Part shown: one piece after another, positions 11,453 to 55,774 of the stretch | How positions within the stretch are numbered: position 1 is the first letter of the stretch | How the letters are laid out: every line of letters starts with the position of its first letter | Made by a program: the position numbers and the translations under genes | Source of the DNA: an uncultured Planctomycetia bacterium | GTDB lineage: Bacteria; Planctomycetota; UBA8108; UBA1146 | DNA: 64,000 nucleotides | Assembly: GCA_964412635.1 (NCBI GenBank) | Contig: CAYPPQ010000003.1 | Location: 24,491 to 88,490, forward strand | Reading direction: 5' to 3' | The notes under the pieces: model-generated | What the model saw: only the letters and a program-made list of their open reading frames with translations | The model's database searches: none | What the model was told of the DNA's origin: nothing

Positions 11453-12939
11453 GATTTGCGATCAGCGAAATGTAAGTCGATTTCAATTTGCTGGAGAATG
11501 TCGGACTCTCGATGGAGCATCGCTCGGGTGAGAGGTTTGTCGTCGAGCCAATCGTCACGGAAATAGAGTGCTATCTTCTCCTTCTCACCTTCCACCTCGA
11601 ATCGGATCAATTCCTGCGAGCGAGATCGATGGAGTAGAACGGCCAGACGGAAAATCACCAGCAGTCGAGTCATCTCCTGTGGCTTCGTCCAGGAGATTGC
11701 AGCGAGCCGTTGCTCCGTCAGTTTTCTTCGCTGGTTGCGAACCAAGGAAGCGATCACCTGTTGATCGTTTCTGGAAAGACCGGGGAACTCACCGTTTCGA
11801 ATCAGATATTCACCGTGACGCGGGTGTGCGTCATGGCTGACACTCAAGCCGATCTCGTGAAGAAGGGAAGCCCAGCGAAGCCAGTCGTGGTGATCTGATC
11901 GGGTCAGTTCCCAGGAGTGCTTGATGGCGGACAGGATGGAGAGAGCGGTCTTCTCGACGCTTCGGGCCTGTGGCAAATCTACTGCATGGAAGCCGAGACG
12001 ACTGATGATGGAATCGTGGCGGATGTCGTCTCCCTCTTGCTTACCCACCACCTCGGCGAGGAGCCCCTCGCGCAGACCTCCGGGTATCCCGTTGATCTCC
12101 TTCAGGTCGAGGCTCTCCATCAAGGCGACGAGAAGCACATGACCTCCCAGGAGAACTACCTTTCGATCGGTCGATAACTGCGGAAGGTCGATCTCATCGA
12201 CATTCGAATACTGCAGTATTTTGTCCCGGAGTTTTTTCAAACCAACCCGGGTGATGATCCCGTTCCCATCGAGCTTCTCGAGGATCCTGGCGTGGGCGAG
12301 TATTGAACCGGAGGTGCCAACGACCTGATTCCATCCCCGTCTCCGGAAGTTCTCCACATGAGGTTCTATTTCCAATTTTGCTGACAGTAATGCCTGTGAG
12401 TACCTGTGCCTGGTGATCTTTCCGTCCTGGAAATGATCCTTCATCATCTGTACGCAGCCTCGGTCGAGACTTTCAAGGATCTTCGCCTCTCTCCCCTGTC
12501 CCAGTGCAAGTTCAGTGCTGCCTCCTCCGATGTCGATCAGCAAGGTCGTCGCATCGGGCTGCGGAAAGGAAGAACTTGATCCTCTCCAGATGAGACGTGC
12601 TTCTTCGACCCCGGAGATGACATCGATGGGGTGGCCGAGATGCTGTTCACAGCGAATGCGAATCTGTTGCTCTTCCGGCGCACATCGGAAGGAATGGGTG
12701 CCGACAGCACGGATATTGGTTGGAGGGACAGATTCGAGTCGTTCACGGAAGCGATCGAGGCAACAAAATGCACGATCCAGCACTTCACTGGAAAACCGAG
12801 GATTGGTGCCGAGACCTTCCCCTAGCCGGACCCGTTCACGCAACCGATCGATGATCCTGACCTCATCGGCAGATTTTCTGGCGATGATGAGGTGAAAGGA
12901 GTTGGACCCCAGATCGATGGCAGCGTGGGTCTCTTGCAA
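11449..12939 (-). CDS. ppx: Exopolyphosphatase / guanosine pentaphosphate phosphohydrolase (Ppx/GppA) with C-terminal HD domain
   Basis: AAIDLGSNSFHLIIAR actin-like ATPase fold start and a C-terminal HD region (HDIGLSVSHDAH). TTG start at 12939. Its stop overlaps the ppk stop on the opposite strand in the palindrome CTAG. Confidence 0.9.
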   Translation of the reverse strand: MQETHAAIDLGSNSFHLIIARKSADEVRIIDRLRERVRLGEGLGTNPRFSSEVLDRAFCCLDRFRERLESVPPTNIRAVGTHSFRCAPEEQQIRIRCEQHLGHPIDVISGVEEARLIWRGSSSSFPQPDATTLLIDIGGGSTELALGQGREAKILESLDRGCVQMMKDHFQDGKITRHRYSQALLSAKLEIEPHVENFRRRGWNQVVGTSGSILAHARILEKLDGNGIITRVGLKKLRDKILQYSNVDEIDLPQLSTDRKVVLLGGHVLLVALMESLDLKEINGIPGGLREGLLAEVVGKQEGDDIRHDSIISRLGFHAVDLPQARSVEKTALSILSAIKHSWELTRSDHHDWLRWASLLHEIGLSVSHDAHPRHGEYLIRNGEFPGLSRNDQQVIASLVRNQRRKLTEQRLAAISWTKPQEMTRLLVIFRLAVLLHRSRSQELIRFEVEGEKEKIALYFRDDWLDDKPLTRAMLHRESDILQQIEIDLHFADRKS

Positions 12940-26292: not shown

Positions 26293-28323
26293 TCACTTCT
26301 TTTGATGCAGTTGTAAGTGGTCGATGGAGACGGCATTGAGCGGGTCATTGCGCAATCCCACATGGTAGTCGTGACAGGTGGAGCAACTGGAGTCGATCTC
26401 TTGACCATGACAGTCGGTGCAACGGTCTCGAGTGATCGCCTTCCAGTCATTGCTGTGCTGCGGATCGTTGGCGAATTGATGACAGTCGAGGCAGTTCATG
26501 CTCGATCCTTGAAGTACGTGAGGACGGTGGGAAAAGCGGGTCGATTGCGGGGACGATACGGATCGCATCGACTCTGGTGACCAGTGAACCCGAGGGTTGC
26601 CATACTTCACCCCGAGGTGGCAGGAAGCGCAGTTGCCTGCGGCCAGCGGGCCAAAGACCTGCTCGAATACCGACTCGGAATCCGGGTCTGAACCACCGTA
26701 TCTGGCTTCGATGGTGGCCCATGCTTCGATGAACGGATCAGCATGCTGAACCGGCCTGTAACGAATCGATGGCTCCTCGAAATACCATCCTCCAGCAGTG
26801 GCCCATTTCTCCACATCCACGTTCTTCATCGAGGTATCCGGTTCGTCAGTGGACAGATCTTCATCTTCGGAATCATCGAGTAGAAGATCGTCCTCTTCAT
26901 CCCCGGAATCATCGAGTAGAAGATCGTCCTCTTCATCCTCGGAATCATCGAGTAGAAGATCGTCCTCTTCATCCTCGGAATCATCGAGCAGGAGATCATC
27001 CTCTCCAGCCTCTTCTTGCGTCGATTCCTGGTCTTCAGCGCTGTCCGACCGATCATCCTGCTCCTGTGGAGCAAACCAATCGGAGCTGGCCTTCATCAGT
27101 ACCGATCTGGGCAGCTGTCCTGACAGCTGGGCAATCTGTGAACGATCGAGCCCATCCCGGACGGAAGGGGCGACGAGAGAGCGAGTGAAGAGTTCGAGAT
27201 CGGAACTCAGTGCGTCGGCAACTCCCTCCTTGAAGTGACGGGCCAGTTGTTGCGCTGCCGACAGAACTTCATCGCTTTGATCTTCCAGTGAGTAAAGTTC
27301 CACCGCTGACAGTTGTTCCAGCTTCGAGTTGTCGATCCCTGAACTTCGAATCCAGCGCAGGCTCCATGCGGTGGGAAACTCTGAACCGCCATAGGGCCAG
27401 CTTCCGATGTCCTTTTCCGCCTCAAGAAGTGAACCGGTGTCGAGTGCGGGGATGGAAAGGACCTCGATCCCTTTCTGCTTCCCGGTGGCCTCGTGTCCAC
27501 TGATGGAATCGGCATGGCAGGGCGCGCAGGAAACCTCGAAGGGTTTCACGATCATTCGTTGCTGATCTGGTCCGAGATCATGGCAACCATTACATGAAGC
27601 GGGAGCCAGGTCCGGAAATTCATCGAAGTGCTTTTTGGCGTGGTCGGCATGGTCGAAAATGATTGCTCGCTCCGGTTGACCAAAACTACTGCTGAACTCC
27701 GGGTGACCATCGGACAGCGAAGCGAATCGCTGCTGGTGACACGATTGACAGCTCGAGTCGGAGACCTGCGTCACAGGATCGCTGGGATGGTGTTCCCCAT
27801 GACAGCGAGCGCAGGCAACATCTTGAACCGGAGTTGCCGTTGCGGGGGAACCGTTGAATAGCGACTTCAGATGGTCAGGAGATACTGAATGAGGATCTCC
27901 CCCGAATTCTCCGAGGTCGTGGCATTCGAGGCACTTCATCGAGGCATGGGGATCTCCCTGCCCCATCACTCCTCGGCGAACAAACTCCATCGATGCCATT
28001 TCCACCGGCTGATGGCAATCGGCACAACTGAGATGTGCATGAAAGGAACTCAGCGAGCCAGGGTCGACTAACGATTCATCGTTTCCGGAGATGGCCATCA
28101 TGACGAGACCGCAGGTCAGCAAGACTGCTCTTCGAAAGTACTTTTGCCGTGTCTTTCCCTCGCTGGGCACGGGGATACATGGAGATTCGGCATCGGGGCA
28201 GCGACCGCTCGGTGACGGACCGGCGCAACACTGACCATCCCTGTTGCCGCACTGATAGGGTTGATCAGGGCGGAGGTAGTTGACGAATCGAGCATCGAAA
28301 GGGCTGCGCTTCTCCCGCATCAT
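26293..28323 (-). CDS. Decaheme c-type cytochrome with an internal acidic (DDLLLDDSEDEE)x4 repeat
   Basis: Ten CxxCH motifs: CADCH, CLECH, CARCH, CQSCH, CNGCH, CAPCH, CASCH, CLDCH, CTDCH, CSTCH. N-terminal hydrophobic anchor YFRRAVLLTCGLVMMAI. Last gene of the operon; its start overlaps the upstream stop (ATGA). Confidence 0.8.
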   Translation of the reverse strand: MMREKRSPFDARFVNYLRPDQPYQCGNRDGQCCAGPSPSGRCPDAESPCIPVPSEGKTRQKYFRRAVLLTCGLVMMAISGNDESLVDPGSLSSFHAHLSCADCHQPVEMASMEFVRRGVMGQGDPHASMKCLECHDLGEFGGDPHSVSPDHLKSLFNGSPATATPVQDVACARCHGEHHPSDPVTQVSDSSCQSCHQQRFASLSDGHPEFSSSFGQPERAIIFDHADHAKKHFDEFPDLAPASCNGCHDLGPDQQRMIVKPFEVSCAPCHADSISGHEATGKQKGIEVLSIPALDTGSLLEAEKDIGSWPYGGSEFPTAWSLRWIRSSGIDNSKLEQLSAVELYSLEDQSDEVLSAAQQLARHFKEGVADALSSDLELFTRSLVAPSVRDGLDRSQIAQLSGQLPRSVLMKASSDWFAPQEQDDRSDSAEDQESTQEEAGEDDLLLDDSEDEEDDLLLDDSEDEEDDLLLDDSGDEEDDLLLDDSEDEDLSTDEPDTSMKNVDVEKWATAGGWYFEEPSIRYRPVQHADPFIEAWATIEARYGGSDPDSESVFEQVFGPLAAGNCASCHLGVKYGNPRVHWSPESMRSVSSPQSTRFSHRPHVLQGSSMNCLDCHQFANDPQHSNDWKAITRDRCTDCHGQEIDSSCSTCHDYHVGLRNDPLNAVSIDHLQLHQKK
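26869..27012. repeat. 4 x 36-bp tandem repeat inside the decaheme cytochrome gene, encoding (DDLLLDDSEDEE)n
   Basis: The unit ggaatcatcgagtagaagatcgtcctcttcatcctc is repeated head to tail with 1-2 substitutions. Confidence 0.85.
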
Positions 28324-29147
28324 ACCCCCGTTCCTGCAGCATATGCGTGAACCAGGATCACGTGTAGCAACACCAGGATTACCAAGGCACCTGTGCCCGG
28401 GAGATGGATCAGCAGCCAGCCTCTCATCCAGAAATGGAGTCGAAGTTGACGATCGAGTGCCGACTTTCTCAGCACGATGTGATGAATCTGTTCCTCGATA
28501 CTGTTGGATTCTTGTTTCGAGAAGTTGCTGTGCCGCGAATAGGAATCTGCCACCGCATCTGGTAGGTACTGGTTTTCCTTGCTCCCCGAGGAGTGGGAGT
28601 TTGCCTTGCTGAACAGGAATGGGCGAAGAATTGACAGATAGACCTTCTCGTATTCGCTGTGAGGTGCTGACTTCCGGAGTTCGATGATCAACGAATCGGC
28701 TTCTTTGACAAGGGAGGCGATCTCATGATCGATCCTTGCAGGAAGAAGATGAATCGACTCCCGCAACGGTTGAGGAATCGTTCTCATCAATATCCAACCG
28801 GTGAAACCGCTCATCAGGATGACGGAGTATCCGATCCAGAGCAGCGATTCAAAGGTGCCTGTCGGCAAACGAAAATCGGTGTGTTCAAGGAAGAAGTAGC
28901 CACTGAGAACTCCCGTAGTCAGGTGCAGCATCAACCAGGTTGAGGTTTTGCCGAGCGGAAGGAAGGGCAACTTCTTACGGATCCCATAGACGCATAGCAA
29001 CACGAAGCTGCCGAGAAGAAACCAGCCACTGGCCCTGGCAGGATCACCGAGGGATCGGTCTGCCTCGAGAATGCAGAAGCGAAAGGCGATGAACGCAACC
29101 ACCAGAAAGATGATCAAGGAAGTGGAAGGAGTCCTCAGGTTGATCAT
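28320..29147 (-). CDS. Integral membrane protein, ~5 TM with conserved His in the helices; candidate di-heme cytochrome b / quinol-interacting anchor
   Basis: ATG 29147 (MINLRTPSTSLIIFLVVAF) overlaps the upstream stop in TGATG, with GGAGG 8 nt upstream. His residues lie in predicted TMs (LMLHLTTG, LLIHLPG, LLHVILVHAY). The function is inference. Confidence 0.55.
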   Translation of the reverse strand: MINLRTPSTSLIIFLVVAFIAFRFCILEADRSLGDPARASGWFLLGSFVLLCVYGIRKKLPFLPLGKTSTWLMLHLTTGVLSGYFFLEHTDFRLPTGTFESLLWIGYSVILMSGFTGWILMRTIPQPLRESIHLLPARIDHEIASLVKEADSLIIELRKSAPHSEYEKVYLSILRPFLFSKANSHSSGSKENQYLPDAVADSYSRHSNFSKQESNSIEEQIHHIVLRKSALDRQLRLHFWMRGWLLIHLPGTGALVILVLLHVILVHAYAAGTGV

Positions 29148-30862
29148 CAGGATCTCCTCCACAAGCGATCGGAAAAATCGCGCTCGCCGAAGTTGACCCT
29201 GTGAAGTGCATCATGAGGACAGGCATTGACACATGCTGGCCCCGAGGGCTGGTCGATGCACAGATCACATTTCGTTGCCCGCAGGATGGGACTTCCAGAT
29301 TTCGAGTCTATGACGGGTCTTCCCCTGGAGTCTTTGATCTCGACCGTGCGGATGTTGTCGTAGGGGCAGGCGTCAACGCATGTCGCGCAACCGATACAGG
29401 TGGAATCCTGGATGACGACGTTACCGCTGGAGTTTTCACGATGAATGGCTCCAGTCGGGCAACCCACGAGACAGACTGGATCGCAACAGTGCATGCATGC
29501 GGAAGCGACCATCAACTGGGCATGTCTTTGCCCCTCCCTGATGAAACGTGGATTCCCATCATGGGTGATGGCGCAGGCTTTGACGCAATCGTCGCAATCG
29601 GTACATCGATCCATGTCGATGACCATCGTCTGATTCCCATTGATGGTTCTGTGATTGACGATGAAATCGAGGAACTCCCGGGAGACATTGAGTTTGTCTC
29701 CGCGCATGCCGAACTCTTCAAGGAGGAGGCTTTCGGAAATGTGGGGAAGGATCAACTCCTTGACCGCTGGAGTGGAGATCATCAAGAGATCAGTAGCGCC
29801 GATGCAGTGCAGGCTGCTGGAAGCGATTGGCGTTTCCCCTGAGTTCTTGGCTTCGATCAGTTCCTTTAGTCCGAAGAGATCTCCGGGTCTCAGGTAGTCG
29901 ACGGTGTCGGTGACCCCTCGACTGTTTCTGGATAATCGTGCAAAGCCGTTGAGTAGCACGTAGATGCCGTCGAGCCTCCAGCCTTTCTTGATGACGAGAG
30001 TCTCCTGATCGAGAATTTTATCTCGGTTTTCCTCTGTTGTTCGAATCCCGTGATTCCAGTTCTCGTTGCCGTGTCGTTCAAAGATGAAAACATCCATCAG
30101 CTTTGATCTGTCGACAGGAGGGATCATTTCAAAGAGCGGGAGGTCAGAAAAGAGGTTGCCCAGAGATCTGGATCTGACTTCTTCTTCGAGGTATTCCCTG
30201 AACATCGGCGATTTCCTGCAGATGTCACGGACCCCTTGCCACCGTAGTTCCAGAACTTCCGTTTTTTCGGCGGTGAAGACGGTGGCTGTTCTCGATGATC
30301 TTCTGAGGGCGGCGATTTCTCCGATCGACCTTCCGATTGGAATCTCTACAGATTTGAACTCCTCGATGAACTGATCGAGGTCGTAGGGAACCAGCCGCGA
30401 TTGTTTGATCACCTCCTTTTCATCGATGGTGGAGGTACTGACGCGATCGACATTTCTCGATTCGGTATGGCTGGAGTTGTTCCACAACTGCGAGAGAGCC
30501 TGCCACCAGGTTCGCTTTGGTGGCGCGCTTCTGGTTTGAAGCTTTTCTTCGCCTGCGGGATCGATGAGGACATGGGTGGAACCAGCCAGGACGAAAAATA
30601 CCGATCCGCCATAGTCACCCTTACGGATGATGATCTCGCCAGGTTGATAGCTGACCAATCGGGCGTCGTTTTTGAGGATGTCGACGATGGTCGCACCACT
30701 GGCTTGAAAGTCAGTGCATGCGAAGGAAAGGGCCGTCCCTGTCAGGGCCCAATCAACCGTCTGGTCCGGGAGTAGTTCATCGCCGAAGGGCTGGTCCCAG
30801 CGTCTCGGGCGATCTACTTTGACTTCCTGTTCATCCATGGCGGGTATTTGTTCCAGGTTCAC
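29147..30862 (-). CDS. Fusion protein: tandem cyclic-nucleotide-binding (cNMP) domains + NrfC/DmsB-like ferredoxin with four [4Fe-4S] Cys motifs
   Basis: Phosphate-binding cassette GEIAALRRSSRTATVFTAE, and a second degenerate cNMP domain. C-terminal CTDCDDCVKAC, CMHCCDPVCLVGCP, CIGCATCVDACP, CDLCIDQPSGPACVNACP. GTG start with an AGGAG upstream, overlapping the upstream stop by 1 nt. Confidence 0.75.
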   Translation of the reverse strand: MNLEQIPAMDEQEVKVDRPRRWDQPFGDELLPDQTVDWALTGTALSFACTDFQASGATIVDILKNDARLVSYQPGEIIIRKGDYGGSVFFVLAGSTHVLIDPAGEEKLQTRSAPPKRTWWQALSQLWNNSSHTESRNVDRVSTSTIDEKEVIKQSRLVPYDLDQFIEEFKSVEIPIGRSIGEIAALRRSSRTATVFTAEKTEVLELRWQGVRDICRKSPMFREYLEEEVRSRSLGNLFSDLPLFEMIPPVDRSKLMDVFIFERHGNENWNHGIRTTEENRDKILDQETLVIKKGWRLDGIYVLLNGFARLSRNSRGVTDTVDYLRPGDLFGLKELIEAKNSGETPIASSSLHCIGATDLLMISTPAVKELILPHISESLLLEEFGMRGDKLNVSREFLDFIVNHRTINGNQTMVIDMDRCTDCDDCVKACAITHDGNPRFIREGQRHAQLMVASACMHCCDPVCLVGCPTGAIHRENSSGNVVIQDSTCIGCATCVDACPYDNIRTVEIKDSRGRPVIDSKSGSPILRATKCDLCIDQPSGPACVNACPHDALHRVNFGERDFSDRLWRRS

Positions 30863-31896
30863 TACTCCTGTTTTACAGATCCCATCTTGTAGTCCTCTTC
30901 CTTTGCAATCAGTGCGTCTATTGCAGAGAGGGTACTGCCATCATTCAGTTTTGCGAAAGCATTCAGCGAAGCCGTGATCTGTTCCGAAGCAGCAGCAATT
31001 GCATCTTGATTCTTCAGACTCATCTTCAGATCGACGATGGCGGTCATCGCCTCCTTGATCTGGGGGTTATCGAGGACTTCATTCACGGCCTTGAGTCTCT
31101 TTCTCAGGAGGCTGAACCGCTTGGCGTTCTTGATCGCGTAAGTCCCCTTCGCCGTTGCGGTGGCCACTGCTTTGAGAACGATTTCCATCTCTGCCATGAT
31201 GCCGATGATGTGGAACAACCTCTGCTTCTCGATGGTTGCGAGTTTGTTTTCTTTGCCCTTGGAGTAGAAGTTGTTGTGGCGAACGATCCCCTGGCTCCAC
31301 GAAACCAGTTCGAACTCACTTCCAGAGGAGTGTTTTCCAGTGTTGACAAGGTCCTCGTGGGGCACGACGTGGCAACTGACGCAGTTCCTGGCGATGCTCA
31401 GTACCATCGATGGTCGTAGCATTCCCGCCGCTTCGGAATCGCTCCAGCGAGTTGCGATCTCTTCATCTGTCTCCTCGCCCTCTTCCTTGTCACTGAACTC
31501 GCCGTGCCGCTTCATCCAGTCCGCAGCAGCCCCGTGACACGATTCACAGGAGATACCGTTGGAGATCAGATGGGTCTTCTCCTCCGACTGTTGAGCGGTG
31601 GCATGACAGTTGATACAGAGGCTTTCTCTGGTGATTCGAGCGATGCCCATCTTCTTGGCGATGGCTTGGCCTTCCTTGCTGCGGTGCACTCCTGTGATGG
31701 ACTCGTGATGTGGAGTCTTTTCCCAGATGCCTCCGGAGTGCTTGTGACATTCGATGCACTCGGCAGGCCCCATCACCTTCGAGGAATCAAAACCGGGGCC
31801 GGTGGGGAGATCTTCCCGCGCCCTCTCGGCTGCACCGAAAGAGATTGCGGTGAGGACAATGGTGATCGCAATAGTAGTGGAGGGTTTTTTCTTCAT
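30862..31896 (-). CDS. Tetraheme c-type cytochrome, secreted or membrane-anchored
   Basis: CIECH, CINCH, CESCH, CVSCH. Signal MKKKPSTTIAITIVLTAISFGAA from ATG 31896; the alternative ATG is 31935. Long alpha-helical C-terminal half. Confidence 0.75.
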   Translation of the reverse strand: MKKKPSTTIAITIVLTAISFGAAERAREDLPTGPGFDSSKVMGPAECIECHKHSGGIWEKTPHHESITGVHRSKEGQAIAKKMGIARITRESLCINCHATAQQSEEKTHLISNGISCESCHGAAADWMKRHGEFSDKEEGEETDEEIATRWSDSEAAGMLRPSMVLSIARNCVSCHVVPHEDLVNTGKHSSGSEFELVSWSQGIVRHNNFYSKGKENKLATIEKQRLFHIIGIMAEMEIVLKAVATATAKGTYAIKNAKRFSLLRKRLKAVNEVLDNPQIKEAMTAIVDLKMSLKNQDAIAAASEQITASLNAFAKLNDGSTLSAIDALIAKEEDYKMGSVKQE

Positions 31897-31941
31897 CCGT
31901 TGTGTTCTCCCTTGATTCGGTCTAACAACATCCATGATGTT

Positions 31942-33225
31942 TCAAACATCCAGAATCACATCAGAGGTTGGTCTCGCCACGCATGTAAGGCAATGTCCTC
32001 GTGAGATGTCTACCTCGGGTTCTTCGTCATACTTTACCTTGCCCTCCTGGAGAGGGACTTCACAGGTTCCACAGTTTCCTGACCGGCAGCTGCTATCGAT
32101 GTGAATTCCGGCTTCTTCCGCCAGCTCCAGTATCGAACTGGTGCCATCCCACAGGAGAGATTGATTGCTGCTGTTGAATCGTATTGTCAACTTCTCGGCG
32201 GATGTAGAGGGCTCCGTCGCTGCCGTCGATTCAGGGGAAGGCTTTTTTCGAGTGGATGCGGGACCAAAAGCCTCCATCAAGATACTGTCGGATGAGACTC
32301 CCGATTTTTCCAGCGCAGGGACAATTGCAGACATCATCGGCGGTGGGCCACAGATGTAATACTGGAGGTCTCCTCCGCCGGTGATCTGGACGAGGCGCTC
32401 GACATCGAGGAATCCGCTGTGGTAGGCAGGATCGTCTGAGGTGAGGTCCTTGCCCTCCTTCTGATGACTGTAGAAGACATGGAGATCCAGATTGCTTCTG
32501 TCGGAGATGAGCTGCTGGATGTGGTCGCGGAATGGATGTTCCTCGCGATTCCTGACAGCATGGATGAAGAAGCACTTTCGATCGATCTTCTCGTTGCAGA
32601 TGGTCTCGAGCATGCTCAACAGAGGAGTGACGCCGATGCCCCCTGCCACGAAGACTGCTGGACGGGGATCGTTGCGGTCAAGGATGAATCGACCTGCAGG
32701 ACTGCTCACCTCGAGTAGATCACCGACGGCGATGCTGTGGTGCAAGTAGGAGGAGCCCTGCCCTGGAGGCGCATCCGGCTGGTCGGGAGGTGGCGGAATT
32801 TTCTTCACGGTGATCTTGTAGAGATTCGCATCCCCGGGGGCACTGGAGAGAGAATAGTTGCGGATGGTGGGTTTGGTTTGCCCGGGGATTCGAAACTGAA
32901 ATCCGAGGTGCTGTCCCGGTTCAAAACTGGGTAACGCTTCGCCATCGATGGGTCGAATCAAGAAGGAACAGATGTCATCTGCCTCTGGCAACTTTTCCTC
33001 GAGAATGAAACGGCGATAGCCGCGCCATGCTCTACTCGACTTTGGTGTGCCGGAAGAAACAGGAACTTGTTCGAGTTCCTCCTGCAATTTCACTGCAGAG
33101 AGTTCCATCAACTGGTTGGTTTTCTTGAACGCGATGATGGAAGAGAACATCGAGAACAAGGCCTCCAGCAGGACCAGGAGTACGATTCCTGATCCGATCC
33201 AGAAAATGATTTCGGCGGCATTCAA
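31942..33225 (-). CDS. Membrane-anchored ferredoxin-NAD(P)+ reductase-like oxidoreductase with C-terminal plant-type 2Fe-2S domain (PDR/VanB-like architecture)
   Basis: N-terminal TM IIFWIGSGIVLLVLLEALF. FAD motif RNYSLSS. NAD(P) motif AVFVAGGIGVTPLLSML. C-terminal CRSGNCGTCE...C. TTG start. Confidence 0.8.
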   Translation of the reverse strand: MNAAEIIFWIGSGIVLLVLLEALFSMFSSIIAFKKTNQLMELSAVKLQEELEQVPVSSGTPKSSRAWRGYRRFILEEKLPEADDICSFLIRPIDGEALPSFEPGQHLGFQFRIPGQTKPTIRNYSLSSAPGDANLYKITVKKIPPPPDQPDAPPGQGSSYLHHSIAVGDLLEVSSPAGRFILDRNDPRPAVFVAGGIGVTPLLSMLETICNEKIDRKCFFIHAVRNREEHPFRDHIQQLISDRSNLDLHVFYSHQKEGKDLTSDDPAYHSGFLDVERLVQITGGGDLQYYICGPPPMMSAIVPALEKSGVSSDSILMEAFGPASTRKKPSPESTAATEPSTSAEKLTIRFNSSNQSLLWDGTSSILELAEEAGIHIDSSCRSGNCGTCEVPLQEGKVKYDEEPEVDISRGHCLTCVARPTSDVILDV

Positions 33226-33228
33226 TCG

Positions 33229-34671
33229 TCAGAACCTCACCAGAAACTCGGTTCGAATCCCATTGTTGGTGGCACCGCCCTCGTCCATCTTCGTGTAGCC
33301 ATCGCATTGCAGCATCACTCTATTCGAGAGTTTTTCCTGGAATCGGATTCCCACCGCTCCCGAAGCGGGGTCACTTCCCTCCGTCGGTGTTCTTCCACCC
33401 AGTTCGACGATGAAGTTACGTTCTCCTCCGGAAAGGACCCACTGGTAGCCGACTGCGCCGCCGAAGGAGCGATCTGCTCGATTGCCCAGTGCTGGCTTGA
33501 AACTGCCCAGTCCTGCCGCAGCGAAGAGGATGCCGGCCTTGCCCAGGGGACCACCCTTGGCCGGTGATCTTCCCGCTGAGGAGAACTCATCGATGCCGAG
33601 GAAGAGAGTGCCGTAGGCGTTGTCATCGGTCCCAAAAGGAGTGGTCGATGCTTCGGCGAAGAACAGCATCCCGTCACTGACCTGAGCGTTGTCCGCTTCC
33701 GATGCGGATGAAGCACACCAGCGAATTGTAGTGTTGAAGGTGCGCCCCCATTTCTTGATCCGTTGCGATGATCCGAGTCCAGCGAAGATCCCATCACCTC
33801 CCTGGTCGATCGGCGCAGTGACGGCGACGAGATCGGCATCGATGGTACTGGCGTAGGTGTCGGTCTCGGTGGAAATCCCGAACAACCTCGACTGTGTGGC
33901 AAGCTTGTTGTCATCGCGGTGCAGCTGTCCCCAGCCATAGATCATGGTGAGGCGCATATTGGACGCACCAGTGAAGGGGATGAAACGAGTGACTCCGAAA
34001 GCGTCCATGTTGTCGTTGACCAGGATGCCATCTTGCAGATCAACACCCCATCTGCCGAAACTGAAACCGTAATCGAGTTTCTTGTTTCCGGCCGGATCAA
34101 TTCGAGGGAACAACTCGCTGAGTTCTCCTTCGAAGAAGAAGGTGGTCAACTCGAGGCTGGTGTTGTCGTTCCAACCTTCGTTGGCTTCCGGTTCGATGGT
34201 GTAGCCGGTGAACTGGCCCTGGTCCTGAAGCGGTTGAAGTCCAACAAGAATTCTCTCGGTACCGGTGAATTGCAGGTTCGCAAAGAGATCGATGCGATTG
34301 GCCCATTCGATCTTCCGGTTGTCGTTCCCGGAGGGGTCGATGACGTTGATGCCGGTTCGTAGATTTCCGTAGACCCACAACGACGGTCGCCAGACAGCAC
34401 CGGTGGGAATGTCAAAGCCTCGCTCCAGTCGACCGGTGTCGAGAAAACCTGGACCCAGTTCCAGTAACGGTGGAGTCGGCTCGATCTGATCCTCGGGGAT
34501 CAGCGGGATGGGGTGATCTGGAAGTCTGCTGGGACTCTCTTCTTGCTGCGATAAGCCTTGCTGGCTGAAGAGGAGGAGTACCCCGCACAGGATCGTCACC
34601 TGCAGGCGCTGGAAGGGGGAAGAACTGCTCCACCCAGGAGATCTGGCGGGTTGGATCTGCACTGGATTCAA
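33229..34671 (-). CDS. Putative outer-membrane beta-barrel protein (porin-like) co-transcribed with multiheme cytochromes
   Basis: 480 aa. N-terminal signal-like LQVTILCGVLLLFSQQGLSQQ. Alternating amphipathic beta-strand pattern throughout. The C-terminus ...EFLVRF ends in Phe. A 4-nt overlap with the pentaheme gene. Confidence 0.5.
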   Translation of the reverse strand: MNPVQIQPARSPGWSSSSPFQRLQVTILCGVLLLFSQQGLSQQEESPSRLPDHPIPLIPEDQIEPTPPLLELGPGFLDTGRLERGFDIPTGAVWRPSLWVYGNLRTGINVIDPSGNDNRKIEWANRIDLFANLQFTGTERILVGLQPLQDQGQFTGYTIEPEANEGWNDNTSLELTTFFFEGELSELFPRIDPAGNKKLDYGFSFGRWGVDLQDGILVNDNMDAFGVTRFIPFTGASNMRLTMIYGWGQLHRDDNKLATQSRLFGISTETDTYASTIDADLVAVTAPIDQGGDGIFAGLGSSQRIKKWGRTFNTTIRWCASSASEADNAQVSDGMLFFAEASTTPFGTDDNAYGTLFLGIDEFSSAGRSPAKGGPLGKAGILFAAAGLGSFKPALGNRADRSFGGAVGYQWVLSGGERNFIVELGGRTPTEGSDPASGAVGIRFQEKLSNRVMLQCDGYTKMDEGGATNNGIRTEFLVRF

Positions 34672-36560
34672 GATCCTTCTCCTTTCGGCGTGGGGATCTC
34701 CACGACAGTGGACTTTTCGGCGACCACCACGGCTCCTTCCACCAGGCGTTCGCCCAGTTCGCGGGGGGACATTCCGTAGTCAAAGCCAACGTGCATCGTC
34801 TGGTGGATCAGATTGACAGGAACTGCCTGGGAGACGAAGCGCGCCTCGACACTGTAGGGGCCGTTCCCTGTCAGCAAATCTGCATCGACATGGTAGCGTG
34901 CGGTTCGGTACCCGAGAGGCTCGATGCCGCGACGGTGTTTTCTCATCCCTTTCGGATGACCGTAGATATTGTTGGGCCTCGATGCCGGTCGGATGAAGGG
35001 AAGAGCCGTCACAGAACTGTTGATGGTGAGGACCTGCTCGCGGTCTCCGCCTCTGATGTTTCTCGACATGAACTTGGACTGCAGGTTGAACAGTTGCTCA
35101 TCTAACTCGATTTCGCCACTGCGGACATAGAGTGAGAAGCTATCCCTGACATCTCCATTTGGATCTCGATCTCCAGAGACGAAGACCACTTCTCCGCCGG
35201 AATCCTTGACCTCGATCTGAACCACGAATAATCGTTCCGCATCGAATCCTGTCGGGAGGTTGTGACCGGTGGTGAGGTTCTTGACATCGATTTCGAGATC
35301 GATCCCGTCTTCGCTGGCATCGGTCACGCGGATGTCGGAGAGGCCGAATCCTCGCTTCAGCACGGCGATTCGTTGCTGCTTGGCCCACTCGAGCAATTCG
35401 AGTTGCTCATCGATGATCGCCCTGGCTGCTTCTCTATCGTCGATTGAGAACCACTCATCGGGGAACTCGAAATCAGCGGGACAGTTCTCCTCGAACTCCT
35501 CGGTTCCCCAACCAGCCTCGACATCGAAGAGGAGCCAACCTGCCAGTGACTTCAACTCGTTCGCCTTCCGGTTGACGGGGAAGATGCCCGGGTGGATCAG
35601 GGAGTAATCAGGGCCGGCGAAGAAATGATTGGTGAGTTTTCGATCGGCGGTTGGATTTCCGTCAACCTCTGCTGCTGGGCCGAAGTTATAACCGCTGGGA
35701 ATGCCCTGCTCCTTTCCCATGTGGCAGTCGTTGCACGTGATCCCTTCCGCTGCGGCAGGGGAGTTTCTGTACTCGCTGATCAGTTCGTGCACCTTGAGAC
35801 CGTTCGGAGCAAAAACCTCGTGACAGCTGCCACAGAAGGCCGAATCTGAGATCTCCGGGAATTTCTCGATCTCGCCATGGATGGCGCGGCCCACATCTTC
35901 ACGATCGGTGTTGACCTTGAAGGTCTTCGGATCGTTGAGGATCCGGGCCAGTTCATCGTTGCCGTTGGGACCCTTGACTGAATCGTAGACATCTCCCTGA
36001 TCGATTCCGAGTCGCCCCGACACCTTTCGGTACGGCGCACTCATCCGATGGCAGGTGACACAGGTGATCCCCTCCCTCGATGCGGGGTGGCGATCCAGGT
36101 TGGAGATGCTGAAGGCTTCTCCCATGTCGGAGCCCACAGGAGCATGACAGCGGAGACAGAAGTCACCATTGGTGCTGCTGGTCCCGGCATTCATGGCGTT
36201 CTGCATCGACATCATCAAGGGACTCAGTTGCGAGTATGCATGTTGTGACACTGACCATTCCCTGTACTGGGTCGGATGACACAGGGCACATTCGTCAGCC
36301 GAGGGGAAGTTGCTCTTGGCAAATATCTTGGCGTGCGCATCGTCCTGGGTTGGTTTCACTTCCGGTGTTTCGGACGCCTCATCGAGAAGGTCGTCATCGA
36401 GGAGGTCATCATCGAGAAGATCGTCATCGAGGAGGTCGTCTTCGACAGGTTGTGGATCGGGGGGCGGATCCTGGGCGGATAATGAATTCAGTGGAAACAA
36501 CATGATGAAGACACTGAAGACGAAACCGCAGAAGAAGAGCCTCTGTAATGGAATGCCCAT
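34668..36560 (-). CDS. Pentaheme c-type cytochrome with N-terminal (DDDLL)n acidic repeat; first gene of the 7-gene redox operon
   Basis: Signal MGIPLQRLFFCGFVFSVFIMLFPLNSLSA, then DDLLDDDLLDDDLLDDDLLDE. CALCH, CLRCH, CVTCH, CGSCH, CNDCH. ATG 36560 with AGAGGTG upstream. Confidence 0.8.
   Translation of the reverse strand: MGIPLQRLFFCGFVFSVFIMLFPLNSLSAQDPPPDPQPVEDDLLDDDLLDDDLLDDDLLDEASETPEVKPTQDDAHAKIFAKSNFPSADECALCHPTQYREWSVSQHAYSQLSPLMMSMQNAMNAGTSSTNGDFCLRCHAPVGSDMGEAFSISNLDRHPASREGITCVTCHRMSAPYRKVSGRLGIDQGDVYDSVKGPNGNDELARILNDPKTFKVNTDREDVGRAIHGEIEKFPEISDSAFCGSCHEVFAPNGLKVHELISEYRNSPAAAEGITCNDCHMGKEQGIPSGYNFGPAAEVDGNPTADRKLTNHFFAGPDYSLIHPGIFPVNRKANELKSLAGWLLFDVEAGWGTEEFEENCPADFEFPDEWFSIDDREAARAIIDEQLELLEWAKQQRIAVLKRGFGLSDIRVTDASEDGIDLEIDVKNLTTGHNLPTGFDAERLFVVQIEVKDSGGEVVFVSGDRDPNGDVRDSFSLYVRSGEIELDEQLFNLQSKFMSRNIRGGDREQVLTINSSVTALPFIRPASRPNNIYGHPKGMRKHRRGIEPLGYRTARYHVDADLLTGNGPYSVEARFVSQAVPVNLIHQTMHVGFDYGMSPRELGERLVEGAVVVAEKSTVVEIPTPKGEGS
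36371..36430. repeat. 4 x 15-bp tandem repeat encoding (DDDLL)n within the pentaheme cytochrome gene
   Basis: The units are catcgagaaggtcgt / catcgaggaggtcat / catcgagaagatcgt / catcgaggaggtcgt. Confidence 0.85.
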
Positions 36561-36770
36561 GGTCACCTCTTTCCGATCAGGGGAAGAGTATTGAACCGAT
36601 GTCTTTCAAGAGGTATGTCGAAGTGATCACTCAAGAGATTCGATTCGATGTTCAACTCGGCTGCATACTACCAAGGCTGCCACGTCATGAGATGTTCCTT
36701 CTTCAGAATCAACCGTCCATCGCAGGTGGGTCGTAACTGGCAGCAGTGGCTCCTGCATCACAGTGCTGCT

Positions 36771-36794: not shown

Positions 36795-36805
36795 GAGGAG
36801 TAGTG

Positions 36806-38122
36806 ATGATTCCCCGGTTTCCCCGGTTACAGGAAGCCCTTGCTGGTGGTCCACTCTGGCAATTGAGACTATTTGCCATGGTGACGGCGTTCTGCGTCTA
36901 TTTCTCGATGTACGCCTTTCGGAAGCCATTTGCAGCGGGAACCTATTCGGGAGCGGAGTGGGCGACTACCGGTCTGGGACTGAAGACGGTACTGGTGATC
37001 GGTCAGATCTTTGGTTACACCCTCGCGAAGTTTCTCGGCTCTCGAATCTGTTCCCAGGCGACCCGAGAACATCGGAGTCGCTGGTTGTTCGGACTGATCG
37101 TTGCAGCGGAATCCTGTCTGTTGTTGTTCGGAATGTTGCCCGATTTCTTGAAACCTGTGGCGATGTTTCTCAACGGTTTATCCCTCGGGATGATCTGGGG
37201 TCTGGTCGTGCGTTACCTGGAGGGTCGAAGGGCCAGCGAGGTGTTACTGGCCGGCTTGAGCTGTTCCTTCATCATCGCCAGCGGAGTGGTCAAGGATGTC
37301 GGGCGCTGGTTGATGTCCGATCATGGAATTCCCGAGATGTGGATGCCCGCCGCGACCGGATTGATCTTCTTGCTGCCCTTCTGGATCGCCTTGACCCTGC
37401 TCGATCATCTTCCCGAGCCGGACGCGCAGGATCAGCAGGAGAGATCGAAACGCCCCGAGATGGACTCCCACGATCGACGGGTTTTTCTTCGCACCTTTCC
37501 CCTCGGTTTTGCCCTGCTGCTGGTGGTGTACACACTGGTCACGGCATTTCGCGACTATCGAGATAACTTCGGAGACGAGATCCTCACCGAACTGGGATAC
37601 GGCGAGGCGAAGGGGATCTTTTCCAGCATCGAAGTCCCGGTGGCGTTCGTGGTGATCAGCGCACTGGCCCTCTTCAGCCTTGTACCTGGGGGAAGAAGGG
37701 GGTTGCTGGCTCTTTTCGCCATGCTGGGCGCAGGAGCAGTGACGATGTTGGTGTCGACGGAGTTGTTCTCGCAGGGCTCCCTCACCGGCAAGGAATGGAT
37801 GCTTGCCATCGGGATCGGATCCTATCTGGTCTATGTACCCTTCGGCTCGGTCCTCTTTGAACGCATCGCCGCCACCTTGAGGTTCAAGGGAAATGCGGTC
37901 TTTGCCATCATGGTGGCAGATGGCGTCGGCTATCTTGGATCGACGATCCTGCTGATCTATCAGGATCTCGGGTATTCGAGCGATGAGACCTCTGTCAATT
38001 TCATGACGGTCCTGACCCGGGTCACTGCGGTGGTGTGTGTGGTTGGATTTGCTGCTGCGGCGATCTACTTCGATCGACATTACATCCGAGGTCGAGAATC
38101 GACACCCGATGATCAGAAGTGA
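36806..38122 (+). CDS. Polytopic membrane protein, MFS-like transporter fold, family not recognised
   Basis: ~12 predicted TM in two 6-TM halves separated by a charged loop (DAQDQQERSKRPEMDSHDRR). GAGGAG lies 5 nt before ATG 36806. Divergent from the redox operon. Confidence 0.6.
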   Translation: MIPRFPRLQEALAGGPLWQLRLFAMVTAFCVYFSMYAFRKPFAAGTYSGAEWATTGLGLKTVLVIGQIFGYTLAKFLGSRICSQATREHRSRWLFGLIVAAESCLLLFGMLPDFLKPVAMFLNGLSLGMIWGLVVRYLEGRRASEVLLAGLSCSFIIASGVVKDVGRWLMSDHGIPEMWMPAATGLIFLLPFWIALTLLDHLPEPDAQDQQERSKRPEMDSHDRRVFLRTFPLGFALLLVVYTLVTAFRDYRDNFGDEILTELGYGEAKGIFSSIEVPVAFVVISALALFSLVPGGRRGLLALFAMLGAGAVTMLVSTELFSQGSLTGKEWMLAIGIGSYLVYVPFGSVLFERIAATLRFKGNAVFAIMVADGVGYLGSTILLIYQDLGYSSDETSVNFMTVLTRVTAVVCVVGFAAAAIYFDRHYIRGRESTPDDQK

Positions 38123-38131
38123 ATCCTACGA

Positions 38132-40081
38132 TTACCGTGGTGGAATGCTGACCACCGTTGATTTCTCGGCGATCACGATGGCACCATCGACCAGCTTCTT
38201 GGCCAGTGCTCGAGGTGAGAGTCGATAATCGAATCCGACATGCATCGTGTGAACGATCAGGTTCACCGGCACCGATTGAGAGATGAACTGCGTCTTGATC
38301 GAATACGGCCCCGTCCCGGTGAGCGATTCTCCAGCGACACGATATGCGGCAGTTCGATGACCCAGTGGCTCGATGGAACGGTGGTGTTTTCTTACCCCTC
38401 TGGGATGGCCATAAACGTTGTTGGGCCTGGAGGCGGGACGGATGAAGGGGAGGGCCGAGATCGAGTTGTTGGTGGTGAGTACCTGTTCTCGCTCTCCTCC
38501 ACGCACGTTTCTCGTCAGTACTCTGGATTGCAGATTGAACAGCTGTTCATCCAGTGGAATCTCACCGTTACGGACATAGAGGGACAAGCCATCCCTGACA
38601 TCTCCATTCGGGTCACGGTCCCCTGAGATGAAAACGAGGTCTCCTCGTGAATCGGTGACTTCGACCTGAAGAACAAATATCCGCCCGATCTTGTCGGCGG
38701 GGAGATTGTGTCCACTGGAGAGGTTCTTCACGTCGATCTCGAATTCGATCCCCTCCTCACCCGCCGAAGTGATACGGATCTCGGAAAGGCCGAAGCCTCG
38801 CTGCATCATCTCGATCCGCTGTTGCTTGGCCCACTCGAGTAAATCGAGCTGCTCATCGATGATCTCACGTGCGCTGTATCGATCATCGATGGAGTTCCAT
38901 GCTTCGGGAAATTCGAACTCTTCCGGGCAATCGTCTTCGAATTCGTCGGTACCCCAGCCGCTTTCCACATCGAAGAGGCACCATTCGGGAATCGATTTGA
39001 GATCCTGGGCCCGCTTGTTGATGGGGAATACACCAGGGTGGAGGAGGGAGTAGTCCGGGCCTGCGAAGAAATGATTCGTCAACTTCCTGGTGGAAGTCTC
39101 TTCTGCAGCCACCACCGCACCGGGGCCTTGCTGGTAACCGGAGGGGATTCCCTCTGTCTTACCCATGTGGCAATCGTTGCAGGAGATTCCCTGGGCCGCT
39201 GCGGGTGAGTTTCGATACTCGCTGAGAACATCATGAACACGGAATCCGTTCGGCGTCTGGACCTCGTGGCAGCTTCCGCAAAAAGCGGGATCTTCAAGTT
39301 CGGGAAACTTCTCTACCTCAGCGTGAATGTCGCGACCGACATCGTCGCGATCAGTATTTACCTGGAATGATTCTGGATCGCCGAGGACGCGCATCATTTC
39401 GGCATTACCCTGGACACCCTTCACCGGATCGAAGAGATCTCCCCTGTCGATTGCCAGCCTTCCCATGACTTTTCGGTAGGGAGCACTCATGCGATGGCAG
39501 ACGACACACGTAACTCCCTCTCTGGAGATGGGATGTCGTTCGATGTTCGAGAGACTGGAGGGCTCACCGATGTCGGATCCGACGGGCGTATGGCAGCGAA
39601 CACAAAAATCACCGGTTGTGGAACTGGTTCCCTTGTTCAGGGCGATTTGCATCGACAACATCAGCGGACTCAACTGAGAGTATGCGTGCTGAGAAACGGA
39701 CCACTCTCGATATTGCTTGGGGTGGCAACTTGCACATCGGTGTGCCGGGGGGAATTCGTTCTCTGCAAGGAGAAGCGCATGAGCCTCGAGAGAATTGTCG
39801 TCGGATCCCTGGTGGGCAGGTGTATTCTCTGAAGGGTTCTCGGGTGAAGGTTTTTCATCAGCGAGTAAGTCATCATCGAGTAAGTCATCATCGAGCAGGT
39901 CATCATCGAGCAGATCATCTTCCAGCAGATCATCCTCCTCGACAACCGGTGCTGGAGGAGGATCCTGAGAATGGGCCTGCTGTTGTGATCCAAGTTGGTT
40001 CTCTGATGGTCCCGCAAGGATGAAGAGACCGAGCAGGGTCCAGATGAGTGCAGTGTTGTTTGGCGGCTTGCTGGCGGGCAT
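38132..40081 (-). CDS. Pentaheme c-type cytochrome, paralog of 34668..36560, with N-terminal (DDLL)n repeat
   Basis: Co-linear ~70% identity with the first paralog. CASCH, CVRCH, CVVCH, CGSCH, CNDCH. Signal MPASKPPNNTALIWTLLGLFILAG from ATG 40081, with an AAGGA upstream. Confidence 0.8.
   Translation of the reverse strand: MPASKPPNNTALIWTLLGLFILAGPSENQLGSQQQAHSQDPPPAPVVEEDDLLEDDLLDDDLLDDDLLDDDLLADEKPSPENPSENTPAHQGSDDNSLEAHALLLAENEFPPAHRCASCHPKQYREWSVSQHAYSQLSPLMLSMQIALNKGTSSTTGDFCVRCHTPVGSDIGEPSSLSNIERHPISREGVTCVVCHRMSAPYRKVMGRLAIDRGDLFDPVKGVQGNAEMMRVLGDPESFQVNTDRDDVGRDIHAEVEKFPELEDPAFCGSCHEVQTPNGFRVHDVLSEYRNSPAAAQGISCNDCHMGKTEGIPSGYQQGPGAVVAAEETSTRKLTNHFFAGPDYSLLHPGVFPINKRAQDLKSIPEWCLFDVESGWGTDEFEDDCPEEFEFPEAWNSIDDRYSAREIIDEQLDLLEWAKQQRIEMMQRGFGLSEIRITSAGEEGIEFEIDVKNLSSGHNLPADKIGRIFVLQVEVTDSRGDLVFISGDRDPNGDVRDGLSLYVRNGEIPLDEQLFNLQSRVLTRNVRGGEREQVLTTNNSISALPFIRPASRPNNVYGHPRGVRKHHRSIEPLGHRTAAYRVAGESLTGTGPYSIKTQFISQSVPVNLIVHTMHVGFDYRLSPRALAKKLVDGAIVIAEKSTVVSIPPR
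39856..39945. repeat. 6 x 15-bp tandem repeat (tcatcatcgagNaNg) encoding (DDLLx)n in the paralogous cytochrome
   Basis: The sequence shows tcatcagcgagtaag, tcatcatcgagtaag, tcatcatcgagcagg, tcatcatcgagcaga, tcatcttccagcaga, tcatcctcctcgaca. Confidence 0.8.
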
Positions 40082-40228
40082 TACCGATCCTTCGATTTCG
40101 TCTCGCATTCGATGTGGGTCAATTTTGTTATGGAAAATCAGCATAGGTCAAAACGACTGGAAACCGAATGAAATCCATCACGGATACAGATCTCAAGGTA
40201 CAAAAACAGTAGTTCGAGGGCGGAGGAA

Positions 40229-55228: not shown

Positions 55229-55774
55229 ATGAATGAGCAATCAGAATCCCCCCTGGCAGGACAGCAACCGCGGTTGCTGGTCCTCGATGTCGATGGCGTC
55301 CTCACCGACAACACCCTCTGGATTTCCGAGGAGGGTCGCGAGATGAAGGCGTTTCATGTCCCCGATGGAGCAGGCCTGCGCTGGCTCCTGGAGGAGGGTG
55401 TCGAGGTGGCATGGATCTCCGGTCGCGCCTCGGAGGTGACTCGTAAGCGAGCCGCCGAACTGGGGATCGATGAGGTTCACACCGGCATCCGCGACAAGGC
55501 CACTTGCCTGCAGGAACTGCTCGAACGACTTTCGATCTCCGCTGCGGACACCGTCTACATCGGCGACGATCTCATCGACCTGCCACCGATGGCGCTGGTG
55601 GGAACGGCGGTGGCGGTGGCGGATGCGCAGCCGGTCGTGCTCGAGATGGCGGCCCACGTGACCCGCAACCGAGGGGGCCACGGGGCGGTTCGTGAGGTGT
55701 GCGAGTGGATCCTGAAATCGCTGGGAGCGTGGTCTGATCGGATCCACCGCGAGATGTCAGGGGACTCCCCTTGA
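55229..55774 (+). CDS. kdsC: 3-deoxy-D-manno-octulosonate 8-phosphate phosphatase (HAD family, KdsC)
   Basis: HAD motif I LLVLDVDGVLTDN, motif II ISGR, motif IV GDDLIDLP. Size and motifs match KdsC. Confidence 0.8.
   Translation: MNEQSESPLAGQQPRLLVLDVDGVLTDNTLWISEEGREMKAFHVPDGAGLRWLLEEGVEVAWISGRASEVTRKRAAELGIDEVHTGIRDKATCLQELLERLSISAADTVYIGDDLIDLPPMALVGTAVAVADAQPVVLEMAAHVTRNRGGHGAVREVCEWILKSLGAWSDRIHREMSGDSP

Follow-up and report, generated by a model that had tools for sequence, protein, structure and literature searches.

In a 64,000-nucleotide stretch of DNA from an uncultured Planctomycetia bacterium (contig CAYPPQ010000003.1 of assembly GCA_964412635.1), here called the window over its whole length, the open reading frame (ORF) at 29147..30862 on the minus strand is ptdE, a new member of a named, uncharacterised protein family in which two cyclic nucleotide-binding (CNB) domains are joined to a ferredoxin domain. 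The sequence supports four [4Fe-4S] clusters in the ferredoxin half and a role of PtdE as an electron wire, and gating of the electron flux by a cyclic nucleotide bound to the first CNB domain is plausible. The gene and the parts of its product lie as follows.

29147..30862, minus strand: ptdE, 571 aa, tandem CNB domains and a four-cluster ferredoxin domain (from the ORF, Pfam, NCBIfam, homologs and an AlphaFold2 (AF2) model)
30785..30811, minus strand: PtdE residues 18-26, the near-invariant N-terminal motif R-P-(Q/R)-R-W-D-x-P-F (from conservation in relatives)
30128..30700, minus strand: CNB-A, about residues 55-245 (from Pfam, AF2, Foldseek and alignment)
30272..30325, minus strand: phosphate-binding cassette (PBC) of CNB-A, residues 180-197, IGEIAALRRSSRTATVFT (from conservation)
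29747..30127, minus strand: CNB-B, about residues 246-372, non-canonical and with a lengthened PBC loop (from Pfam, Foldseek and alignment)
29183..29641, minus strand: ferredoxin domain of the HycB/HydN/DmsB type, residues 408-560, with 16 cluster cysteines (from Pfam, NCBIfam and the Cys motifs)

The fusion is real and owes nothing to a frameshift, since 23 independently assembled contigs carry an identical 571-aa PtdE and about 110 of its best 120 homologs have the same length and architecture, a few others being longer fusion variants. The ORF is uninterrupted and starts at a GTG codon with AGGAG just 5' to it, the collinear homologs number more than 2000, and AF2 returns a confident single-body model with a pLDDT of 87.6 and a pTM of 0.86. 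Relatives are found in at least 514 species-representative genomes of the Planctomycetota, Verrucomicrobiota, Alpha- and Gammaproteobacteria, Acidobacteriota, Nitrospinota and SAR324, and 393 clusters at 50% identity match PtdE at E<=1e-30. An assembly or frameshift artefact joining two ORFs, for which no supporting point was found, is accordingly rejected. A Pfam scan finds cNMP_binding (E 5.5e-21, in three stretches) and, at residues 410-560, Fer4_11, Fer4_7 and related 4Fe-4S dicluster families, which bears out the original prediction, made from the DNA letters, of cNMP domains fused to a four-cluster iron-sulfur protein. The same scan gives no helix-turn-helix family at E<=0.01, the C-terminal part being the ferredoxin domain, and a reading of PtdE as a Crp/Fnr regulator is rejected for lack of a helix-turn-helix, again as predicted. 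The further claim that no described family has this combination is out of date, because the family is the PtdE of ptdABCDEFG, a seven-gene cluster named in a 2023/24 preprint (Elbon et al., bioRxiv 10.1101/2023.11.21.568154). With proteins in ptd synteny the PtdE of the window shares 38-73% identity over more than 93% of its length.

Of the 20 cysteines in PtdE, 16 fall into four groups, namely C420-x2-C-x2-C-x3-C430, C456-x2-C-x4-C-x3-C468-P, C489-x2-C-x2-C-x3-C499-P and C532-x2-C-x8-C-x3-C548-P. The number of motifs and the first three spacings are as first read from the sequence; in the last motif the seven residues then counted are in fact eight. All 16 are conserved at close to 100% across 150 divergent representatives, and the best solved relative of the C-terminal half, the polyferredoxin HycB3 of the hydrogen-dependent CO2 reductase filament (7qv7_A, E 3.5e-18), aligns with residues 410-558 and so across all four motifs. 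On the strength of this conservation and this alignment the sequence supports four [4Fe-4S] clusters in PtdE, where the preprint assigns it two, and supports its working as an electron wire. In NCBIfam the C-terminal 150 residues are related to HydN, the N-terminus of AegA, DmsB, DsrO, HybA and NrfC, and no cut-off of a named equivalog is reached (AegA 73 against 1003 bits, HydN 64.7 against 260, DmsB 60 against 214). By sequence the domain is thus a fold relative that stands outside every named equivalog, the scores being far below the cut-offs. Four-cluster subunits of the HycB/HydN/DmsB/NrfC type have the same pattern of four Cys groups, but PtdE differs from them in lacking a Tat signal, in carrying some 400 aa of CNB domains, and in its partner, which is a small His-rich membrane protein in place of an NrfD/DmsC-type or catalytic subunit.

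The N-terminal half has the eight-stranded β-barrel and α-helical subdomain of the CNB fold in the AF2 model, in Foldseek and in alignments, and its best structural matches are the tandem CNB-A/B domains of PKA-R and PKG (Foldseek E 4e-16 to 1e-11). Within CNB-A a conserved helical insertion of about 70 aa occupies the β4-β5 loop (about residues 100-170, with QLW at 125-127, E134 and R136), and once it is removed the domain aligns over most of its length with those of PKG, MlotiK1, HCN, SthK and PKA-RI (E 1e-16 to 1e-6). The PBC feature G-E-x-A-x(n)-R-[ST]-A is present in CNB-A and not in CNB-B. In CNB-A the residues G181, E182, R191, T192 and A193 are all in place, in a cassette G-E-x-A-x-L-x4-R-T-A-T-V as in PKG-type sites, for which the family consensus is F-G-E-[IL]-A-A-L-x-R-[TS]-P-R-T-A-T-V. 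G181, E182 and R191 occur in 106 of 106 relatives of 38-73% identity, so the canonical cassette first quoted as GEIAALRRSSRTATVFTAE (residues 181-199) is indeed one, and it has kept the Glu and the Arg whose loss would have spoken against nucleotide binding. Among the divergent representatives the Gly is found in 134 of 135, the Glu in 114 of 135 and the Arg in 112 of 137. CNB-B, originally called degenerate, is just that, with a Gly-to-Arg spacing of 21 against the usual 10 and His352 here at a position where 93 of 106 relatives have Arg. Compared with PKA-R and PKG, PtdE also has a conserved segment N-terminal to CNB-A, like the inhibitor segment of PKA-R, but it differs in the 70-aa insertion of CNB-A and in a CNB-B with a lengthened PBC and, here, no Arg, and the partner regulated by its CNB domains would be a covalently attached iron-sulfur wire and not a kinase. 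Some relatives (P0079, P0096, P0151, P0155, P0164, P0226 and P0252) carry one or two FHA domains, which bind phosphothreonine, either N-terminally or between the CNB domains. Others (P0182 and P0217) are lengthened at the N-terminus by 300-350 aa in which Pfam matches nothing.

The window holds all seven ptd genes on the minus strand, from 36566 down to 26293, as listed here together with the evidence for each.

34668..36566, minus strand: ptdA, pentaheme cytochrome (Pfam, CXXCH count, preprint)
33229..34671, minus strand: ptdB, 480 aa, putative outer-membrane porin with a signal-like N-terminus and a C-terminal Phe (ORF, preprint)
31942..33225, minus strand: ptdC, with an N-terminal transmembrane (TM) helix, FNR-like FAD/NAD(P)-binding domains and a C-terminal plant-type [2Fe-2S] domain (Pfam, NCBIfam)
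30862..31935, minus strand: ptdD, tetraheme cytochrome, c554-like (Pfam, 4 CXXCH)
28320..29162, minus strand: ptdF, five predicted TM helices, probable di-heme b cytochrome (alignment, AF2 model)
26293..28323, minus strand: ptdG, decaheme c-type cytochrome with a Cys-rich cytoplasmic N-terminal tail, one TM helix and an acidic repeat (Pfam, CXXCH count)

The preprint gives the roles as pentaheme cytochrome (PtdA), porin (PtdB), FAD/NAD(P) oxidoreductase (PtdC), tetraheme cytochrome (PtdD), CNB/Fe-S protein (PtdE), ferric-reductase-like membrane protein (PtdF) and decaheme cytochrome (PtdG), and with 5, 4 and 10 CXXCH motifs in PtdA, PtdD and PtdG the window agrees with it gene for gene; it is because the window carries exactly the published cluster that its fusion gene is identified as ptdE, with the same domain architecture and seven-gene synteny. 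No Pfam match was found for the PtdB of the window, and the FAD/NAD module of PtdC is of the flavohemoprotein-reductase kind (E 3e-71). According to the preprint (bioRxiv 10.1101/2023.11.21.568154), which describes the family by annotation only, the function of Ptd is "completely unknown", the hosts are Alpha- and Gammaproteobacteria, Nitrospirales and Planctomycetes, nitrite oxidisers are among the organisms with ptd genes, and transcription of ptdAB is high in oxygen-deficient zones of the ocean. Full-text literature searches found no other name for the cluster and no later work on it beyond that preprint. What is added here to the published description is the four clusters, the His pairs of PtdF, the PtdE-PtdF fusions, the conservation of the PBC, the FHA variants and the adjacent cyclases. 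The preprint itself deals neither with the PBC or the topology nor with fusions, FHA variants and neighbouring cyclases.

Of 83 loci drawn from several phyla, 82 have PtdF after PtdE, the lone exception ending at a contig edge, and PtdG is present in 77, PtdD in 77, PtdC in 73, PtdA in 47 and PtdB in 45, from which ptdC-D-E-F-G emerges as the conserved core. Sneathiella and 80 further loci share the gene order of the window, and in some genomes the order is C-E-F-G, with ptdC directly upstream of ptdE. At the junctions in the window the stop and start codons overlap (D/E as TAGTG, E/F as TGATG, F/G as ATGA) and Shine-Dalgarno-like sequences lie 5' of the starts of ptdE and ptdF, and this indicates that ptdE is translationally coupled to ptdD, ptdF and ptdG. 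The likely true start of ptdF is the ATG at 29147 (275 aa), which overlaps the stop of ptdE.

PtdF has the two His pairs on two TM helices that characterise a di-heme cytochrome b. H80/H94 and H253/H267 are invariant in 21 sequences of 24-81% identity, the members of each pair are 14 residues apart, close to the spacing of about 13 looked for in such proteins, and the pairs lie in the predicted helices 73-94 and 222-278, the latter being the last helix of a model with an AF2 pLDDT of 77. Ferric-reductase-domain and b561-type proteins, which stack two hemes b with bis-His ligation, show such a pattern, and PtdF is therefore probably a di-heme b cytochrome and a transmembrane relay. Some relatives of PtdF have weak DUF4405, Ni_hydr_CYTB or Ferric_reduct matches, and a profile search of the PDB with PtdF gave nothing significant. 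The sidedness of PtdE follows from natural PtdE-PtdF fusions of 833-856 aa (among them P0033, P0057, P0070, P0083 and P0103, of 833-854 aa), two of which are confirmed inside ptd clusters (loci L088 and L089). In the fusions PtdE stands before TM1 of PtdF, on the same side as the positively charged loop RKKLPFLPLG, and by this placement and the positive-inside rule we infer that PtdE lies at the inner membrane on its cytoplasmic side, physically associated with PtdF. PtdE has no signal peptide. A Tat signal at its N-terminal RPRRW is rejected, as the hydrophobic region that should follow is absent and most relatives have RPQRW, and so is a periplasmic, Tat-exported NrfC/DmsB-like subunit, given the lack of Tat features and the position of PtdE in the fusions. 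The placing of PtdE between a tetraheme cytochrome and a membrane anchor in the original prediction is thus correct for the genes, ptdD lying upstream and a membrane protein gene downstream, and fails for the proteins, since PtdE would be cytoplasmic and PtdD periplasmic; likewise the downstream product is a membrane protein, but its four invariant His suggest a di-heme b relay in place of a mere anchor.

A possible source of cyclic nucleotide is encoded beside ptd in part of the family, in that class III cyclase genes (PF00211 above threshold) directly adjoin the cluster in 23 of 89 loci. These cyclases carry GAF, HAMP or 7TMR-DISM sensor domains and take different positions, being divergent from ptdC in 16 Pirellulales loci including that of the cultured Lacipirellula limnantheis, between ptdA and ptdC in Fuerstiella, after ptdG in a Tepidisphaeraceae locus, and upstream of ptdA in SAR324, there with a 7TMR-DISM sensor, as well as in a genome with a fused PtdE-F, there with HAMP and with a Crp-type regulator after the cluster. 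Four examples are given, to which 20 further loci can be added.

L074, 4675-6588, minus strand: ptd-adjacent cyclase
L064, 5826-7313, minus strand: ptd-adjacent cyclase
L077, 1305-3449, plus strand: ptd-adjacent cyclase
L089, 660-2774, plus strand: ptd-adjacent cyclase

Among the cyclase genes in the flanks, 23 of 24 lie within 2.1 kb of a ptd gene where 46% would be expected by position alone (binomial p 2e-7 on raw loci), and the co-location is suggestive, not conclusive, of a signalling role. The cyclases of the Pirellulales and those with HAMP have Asp or Glu at the first specificity position and Gly at the second. Adenylate cyclases have an adenine-specifying Lys at the first position and Asp or Thr at the second, and by the class III rules the pair Asp/Glu and Gly speaks against simple ATP specificity and would fit GTP, a hint that the product may be something other than cAMP. 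An Arg-Thr in the PBC is likewise of the PKG/CNG type. From the cyclase residues and the Arg-Thr of its own cassette the ligand of PtdE may be cGMP, which by analogy is a lead only, and in planctomycetes cGMP appears at least as likely as cAMP.

The most likely model that joins the parts is one in which Ptd is an NAD(P)H-fed trans-envelope conduit with PtdE as its cytoplasmic electron input and CNB-A as a nucleotide switch, a reading to which we give an even chance of being right. Electrons would pass from NAD(P)H to the FAD and [2Fe-2S] of membrane-anchored PtdC, from there into the four [4Fe-4S] clusters of PtdE as the input wire, on to the two hemes b of PtdF, and across the membrane to periplasmic PtdD with 4 hemes and PtdG with 10; these would hand them to PtdA with its 5 hemes and, with the porin PtdB, to an external acceptor. 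Binding of a cyclic nucleotide to CNB-A would, through the rigidly packed CNB tandem, switch electron throughput or the assembly of the complex, and so allow the cell to hold back a pathway that is costly in NAD(P)H and membrane potential. The rationale for such a switch is that the Ptd pathway would spend reducing power and depolarise the membrane, and a precedent exists in the Ca2+-gated NOX5 and DUOX. In the AF2 model the CNB tandem appears to be packed with the ferredoxin domain in one confident body, which makes it the obvious candidate for the switch. Support for a signalling role of PtdE is indirect and comes from the conservation of the PBC, the cyclases adjacent to ptd and the FHA domains added in some relatives; it makes the original hypothesis of second-messenger control, a reasonable one, somewhat better founded than before. 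A more specific version, in which Ptd is a bacterial multi-subunit NOX-like exporter of electrons across both membranes whose PtdE is gated directly by the cGMP or cAMP of a dedicated sensor-cyclase, is put forward tentatively and would seem rather unlikely as a whole.

Several observations weigh against nucleotide gating or against the chain in which it is placed. No adenylate or guanylate cyclase was found in the 64-kb window (27 ORFs, by Pfam and tblastn), nor does a cyclase stand next to ptd in the closest relatives, L004-L007, and when the cyclase signal is counted by lineage it shrinks to 6 of 7 (p ~0.04) and is weak, the Pirellulales dominating it. About 15-18% of divergent relatives are without the PBC Glu or Arg, and sensing is therefore not essential for the core function. 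The Foldseek matches include nucleoside-binding trypanosome PKA-R, and CNB folds that look intact can bind other ligands. As for the chain itself, the heme b assignment of PtdF comes from conserved His only, no Pfam match exists for the PtdF of the window, and a fold search with it returns generic helix bundles only. It is possible, if somewhat doubtful, that PtdE is a constitutive relay free of second-messenger gating, its CNB tandem being a scaffold or docking surface, for instance for the [2Fe-2S] domain of PtdC or the cytoplasmic helices of PtdF, or binding not a cyclic nucleotide but some other ligand, perhaps a nucleoside or a metabolite. To the missing cyclase, the lost PBC residues and the nucleoside-binding homologs this account can add that CNB-B is non-canonical, with its Arg absent in the protein of the window, and that the CNB-A insertion with QLW, E134 and R136, as well as the N-terminal motif, look like interaction surfaces. 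A pure scaffold is however hard to reconcile with a CNB-A cassette in which Gly, Glu and Arg-Thr-Ala do not vary among the 106 closer relatives, and cyclase genes do recur beside ptd.

The other two alternatives change what PtdE does with its electrons. It might be a sensor in which the iron-sulfur clusters report redox state or O2, as in FNR, and which regulates PtdF or PtdG while electrons enter PtdF by another way, for example from quinol. Signalling modules (CNB and FHA) are concentrated on PtdE, and the joining of Fe-S to CNB recalls the logic of FNR-type sensors, but four clusters in a HycB/DmsB-type layout are typical of wires and not of sensors, PtdE has no output domain, and the conservation of PtdC beside it gives it an obvious donor, an FNR-like NAD(P)H reductase with [2Fe-2S]; the chance of such a sensor seems slim. 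Slimmer still is that of an inward flow, in which an external or periplasmic donor would feed PtdE and then PtdC for the reduction of NAD(P)+. For it speak the report of ptd in nitrite oxidisers in the preprint and the occurrence of Nitrospinota and Acidiferrobacter among the loci. Electrons would however have to move uphill to NAD(P)+ and against the membrane potential with no coupling module such as a proton pump in the cluster, and many hosts (Sneathiella, Tistlia, Pirellulales) are aerobic heterotrophs. Tmc/Hmc-type complexes do pass periplasmic electrons to cytoplasmic Fe-S proteins, which counts for the inward direction. The outward flow of the proposed conduit is the favoured one, since it runs downhill in potential with the membrane potential as an aid.

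Among known systems the Ptd architecture recalls a multi-subunit NADPH oxidase, or ferric reductase, to which a porin-cytochrome conduit has been coupled. It differs from NOX5/DUOX, STEAP and MsrQ with Fre in being built of separate subunits and in placing a four-cluster ferredoxin between flavoprotein and hemes. Its PtdF, of about five helices, contains a large helical insert on the cytoplasmic side and gives no significant Ferric_reduct match, and its chain continues into 19 c-type hemes and a porin. With MtrCAB and the Geobacter Pcc it shares multiheme cytochromes encoded together with an outer-membrane porin, without homology above threshold to MtrA/B/C. In Tmc and Hmc, as in Ptd, one module unites an Fe-S protein on the cytoplasmic side, a cytochrome b in the membrane and multiheme cytochromes in the periplasm. 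Against all of these conduits and complexes, the input of Ptd is apparently NAD(P)H through a dedicated reductase and not the quinol pool, and the signalling domains are unique to it. A literature search for a CNB-thioredoxin-reductase fusion as a precedent yielded nothing useful.

Other features of the cluster and the window were also recorded. Just upstream of ptd lies a gene for a second, PtdA-like pentaheme cytochrome of 670 aa (38132-40144, minus strand), 69% identical to PtdA and separated from ptdA by a DUF5690 gene (36803-38122, plus strand). In-frame tandem DNA repeats occur in ptdG (26858-27012, 36 bp x4.3) and, with a 15-bp unit, in ptdA (36379-36445, x4.5) and its paralog (39855-39934, x5.3); in these periplasmic cytochromes they encode acidic stretches of the type 'DDLL(L)DDSEDEE' or 'DDLLDD', which might bind cations or minerals, and a repeat of similar kind, 'KDDLLVEE', is found in locus L048. 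The Cys-rich cytoplasmic tail of PtdG before its single TM helix is short in the window (28150-28323, 5 Cys), and in most loci (L001-L050) it runs to about 80 aa, with 10-12 Cys in a repeated C-x2-G-P-x3-G-x-C unit that comes after Y-E-R-P-N-Q-x-W. The 'RPxQxW' start of PtdG resembles the R-P-Q-R-W-D-x-P-F of the PtdE N-terminus, and the likeness could mean that both use one docking motif, or could point to an additional metal site. Away from ptd, and unrelated to it, the genes for PPK1 (9332-11452, plus strand) and a Ppx/GppA exopolyphosphatase (11449-12939, minus strand) form an ordinary convergent pair with a 4-nt overlap. The GC content of the window rises stepwise from ~0.55 to ~0.62 near 44 kb, and its higher-GC right part holds an ORF of 1007 aa (55771-58794, plus strand) with no Pfam match at E<=1e-5.

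Should the proposed chain prove true, a regulated electron route fed by NAD(P)H would lead to the cell surface in many aerobic and microaerobic bacteria, and this would matter for how iron is acquired, for redox chemistry outside the cell and for reactive oxygen species in oceans and soils. Direct control of an iron-sulfur relay by a cyclic nucleotide would add a new principle to the regulation of respiratory-type complexes, with a second messenger acting allosterically on an iron-sulfur electron wire for the first time. As a NOX-like exporter gated in this way, Ptd would also be a candidate to account for the unexplained Fe(III) reduction outside the cell, or superoxide production, of aerobic marine and soil bacteria. 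Such control of an iron-sulfur relay is testable now, because cultured hosts exist in Lacipirellula limnantheis, Tistlia consotensis, Sneathiella, Hwanghaeella, Ferruginivarius and Ca. Uabimicrobium.

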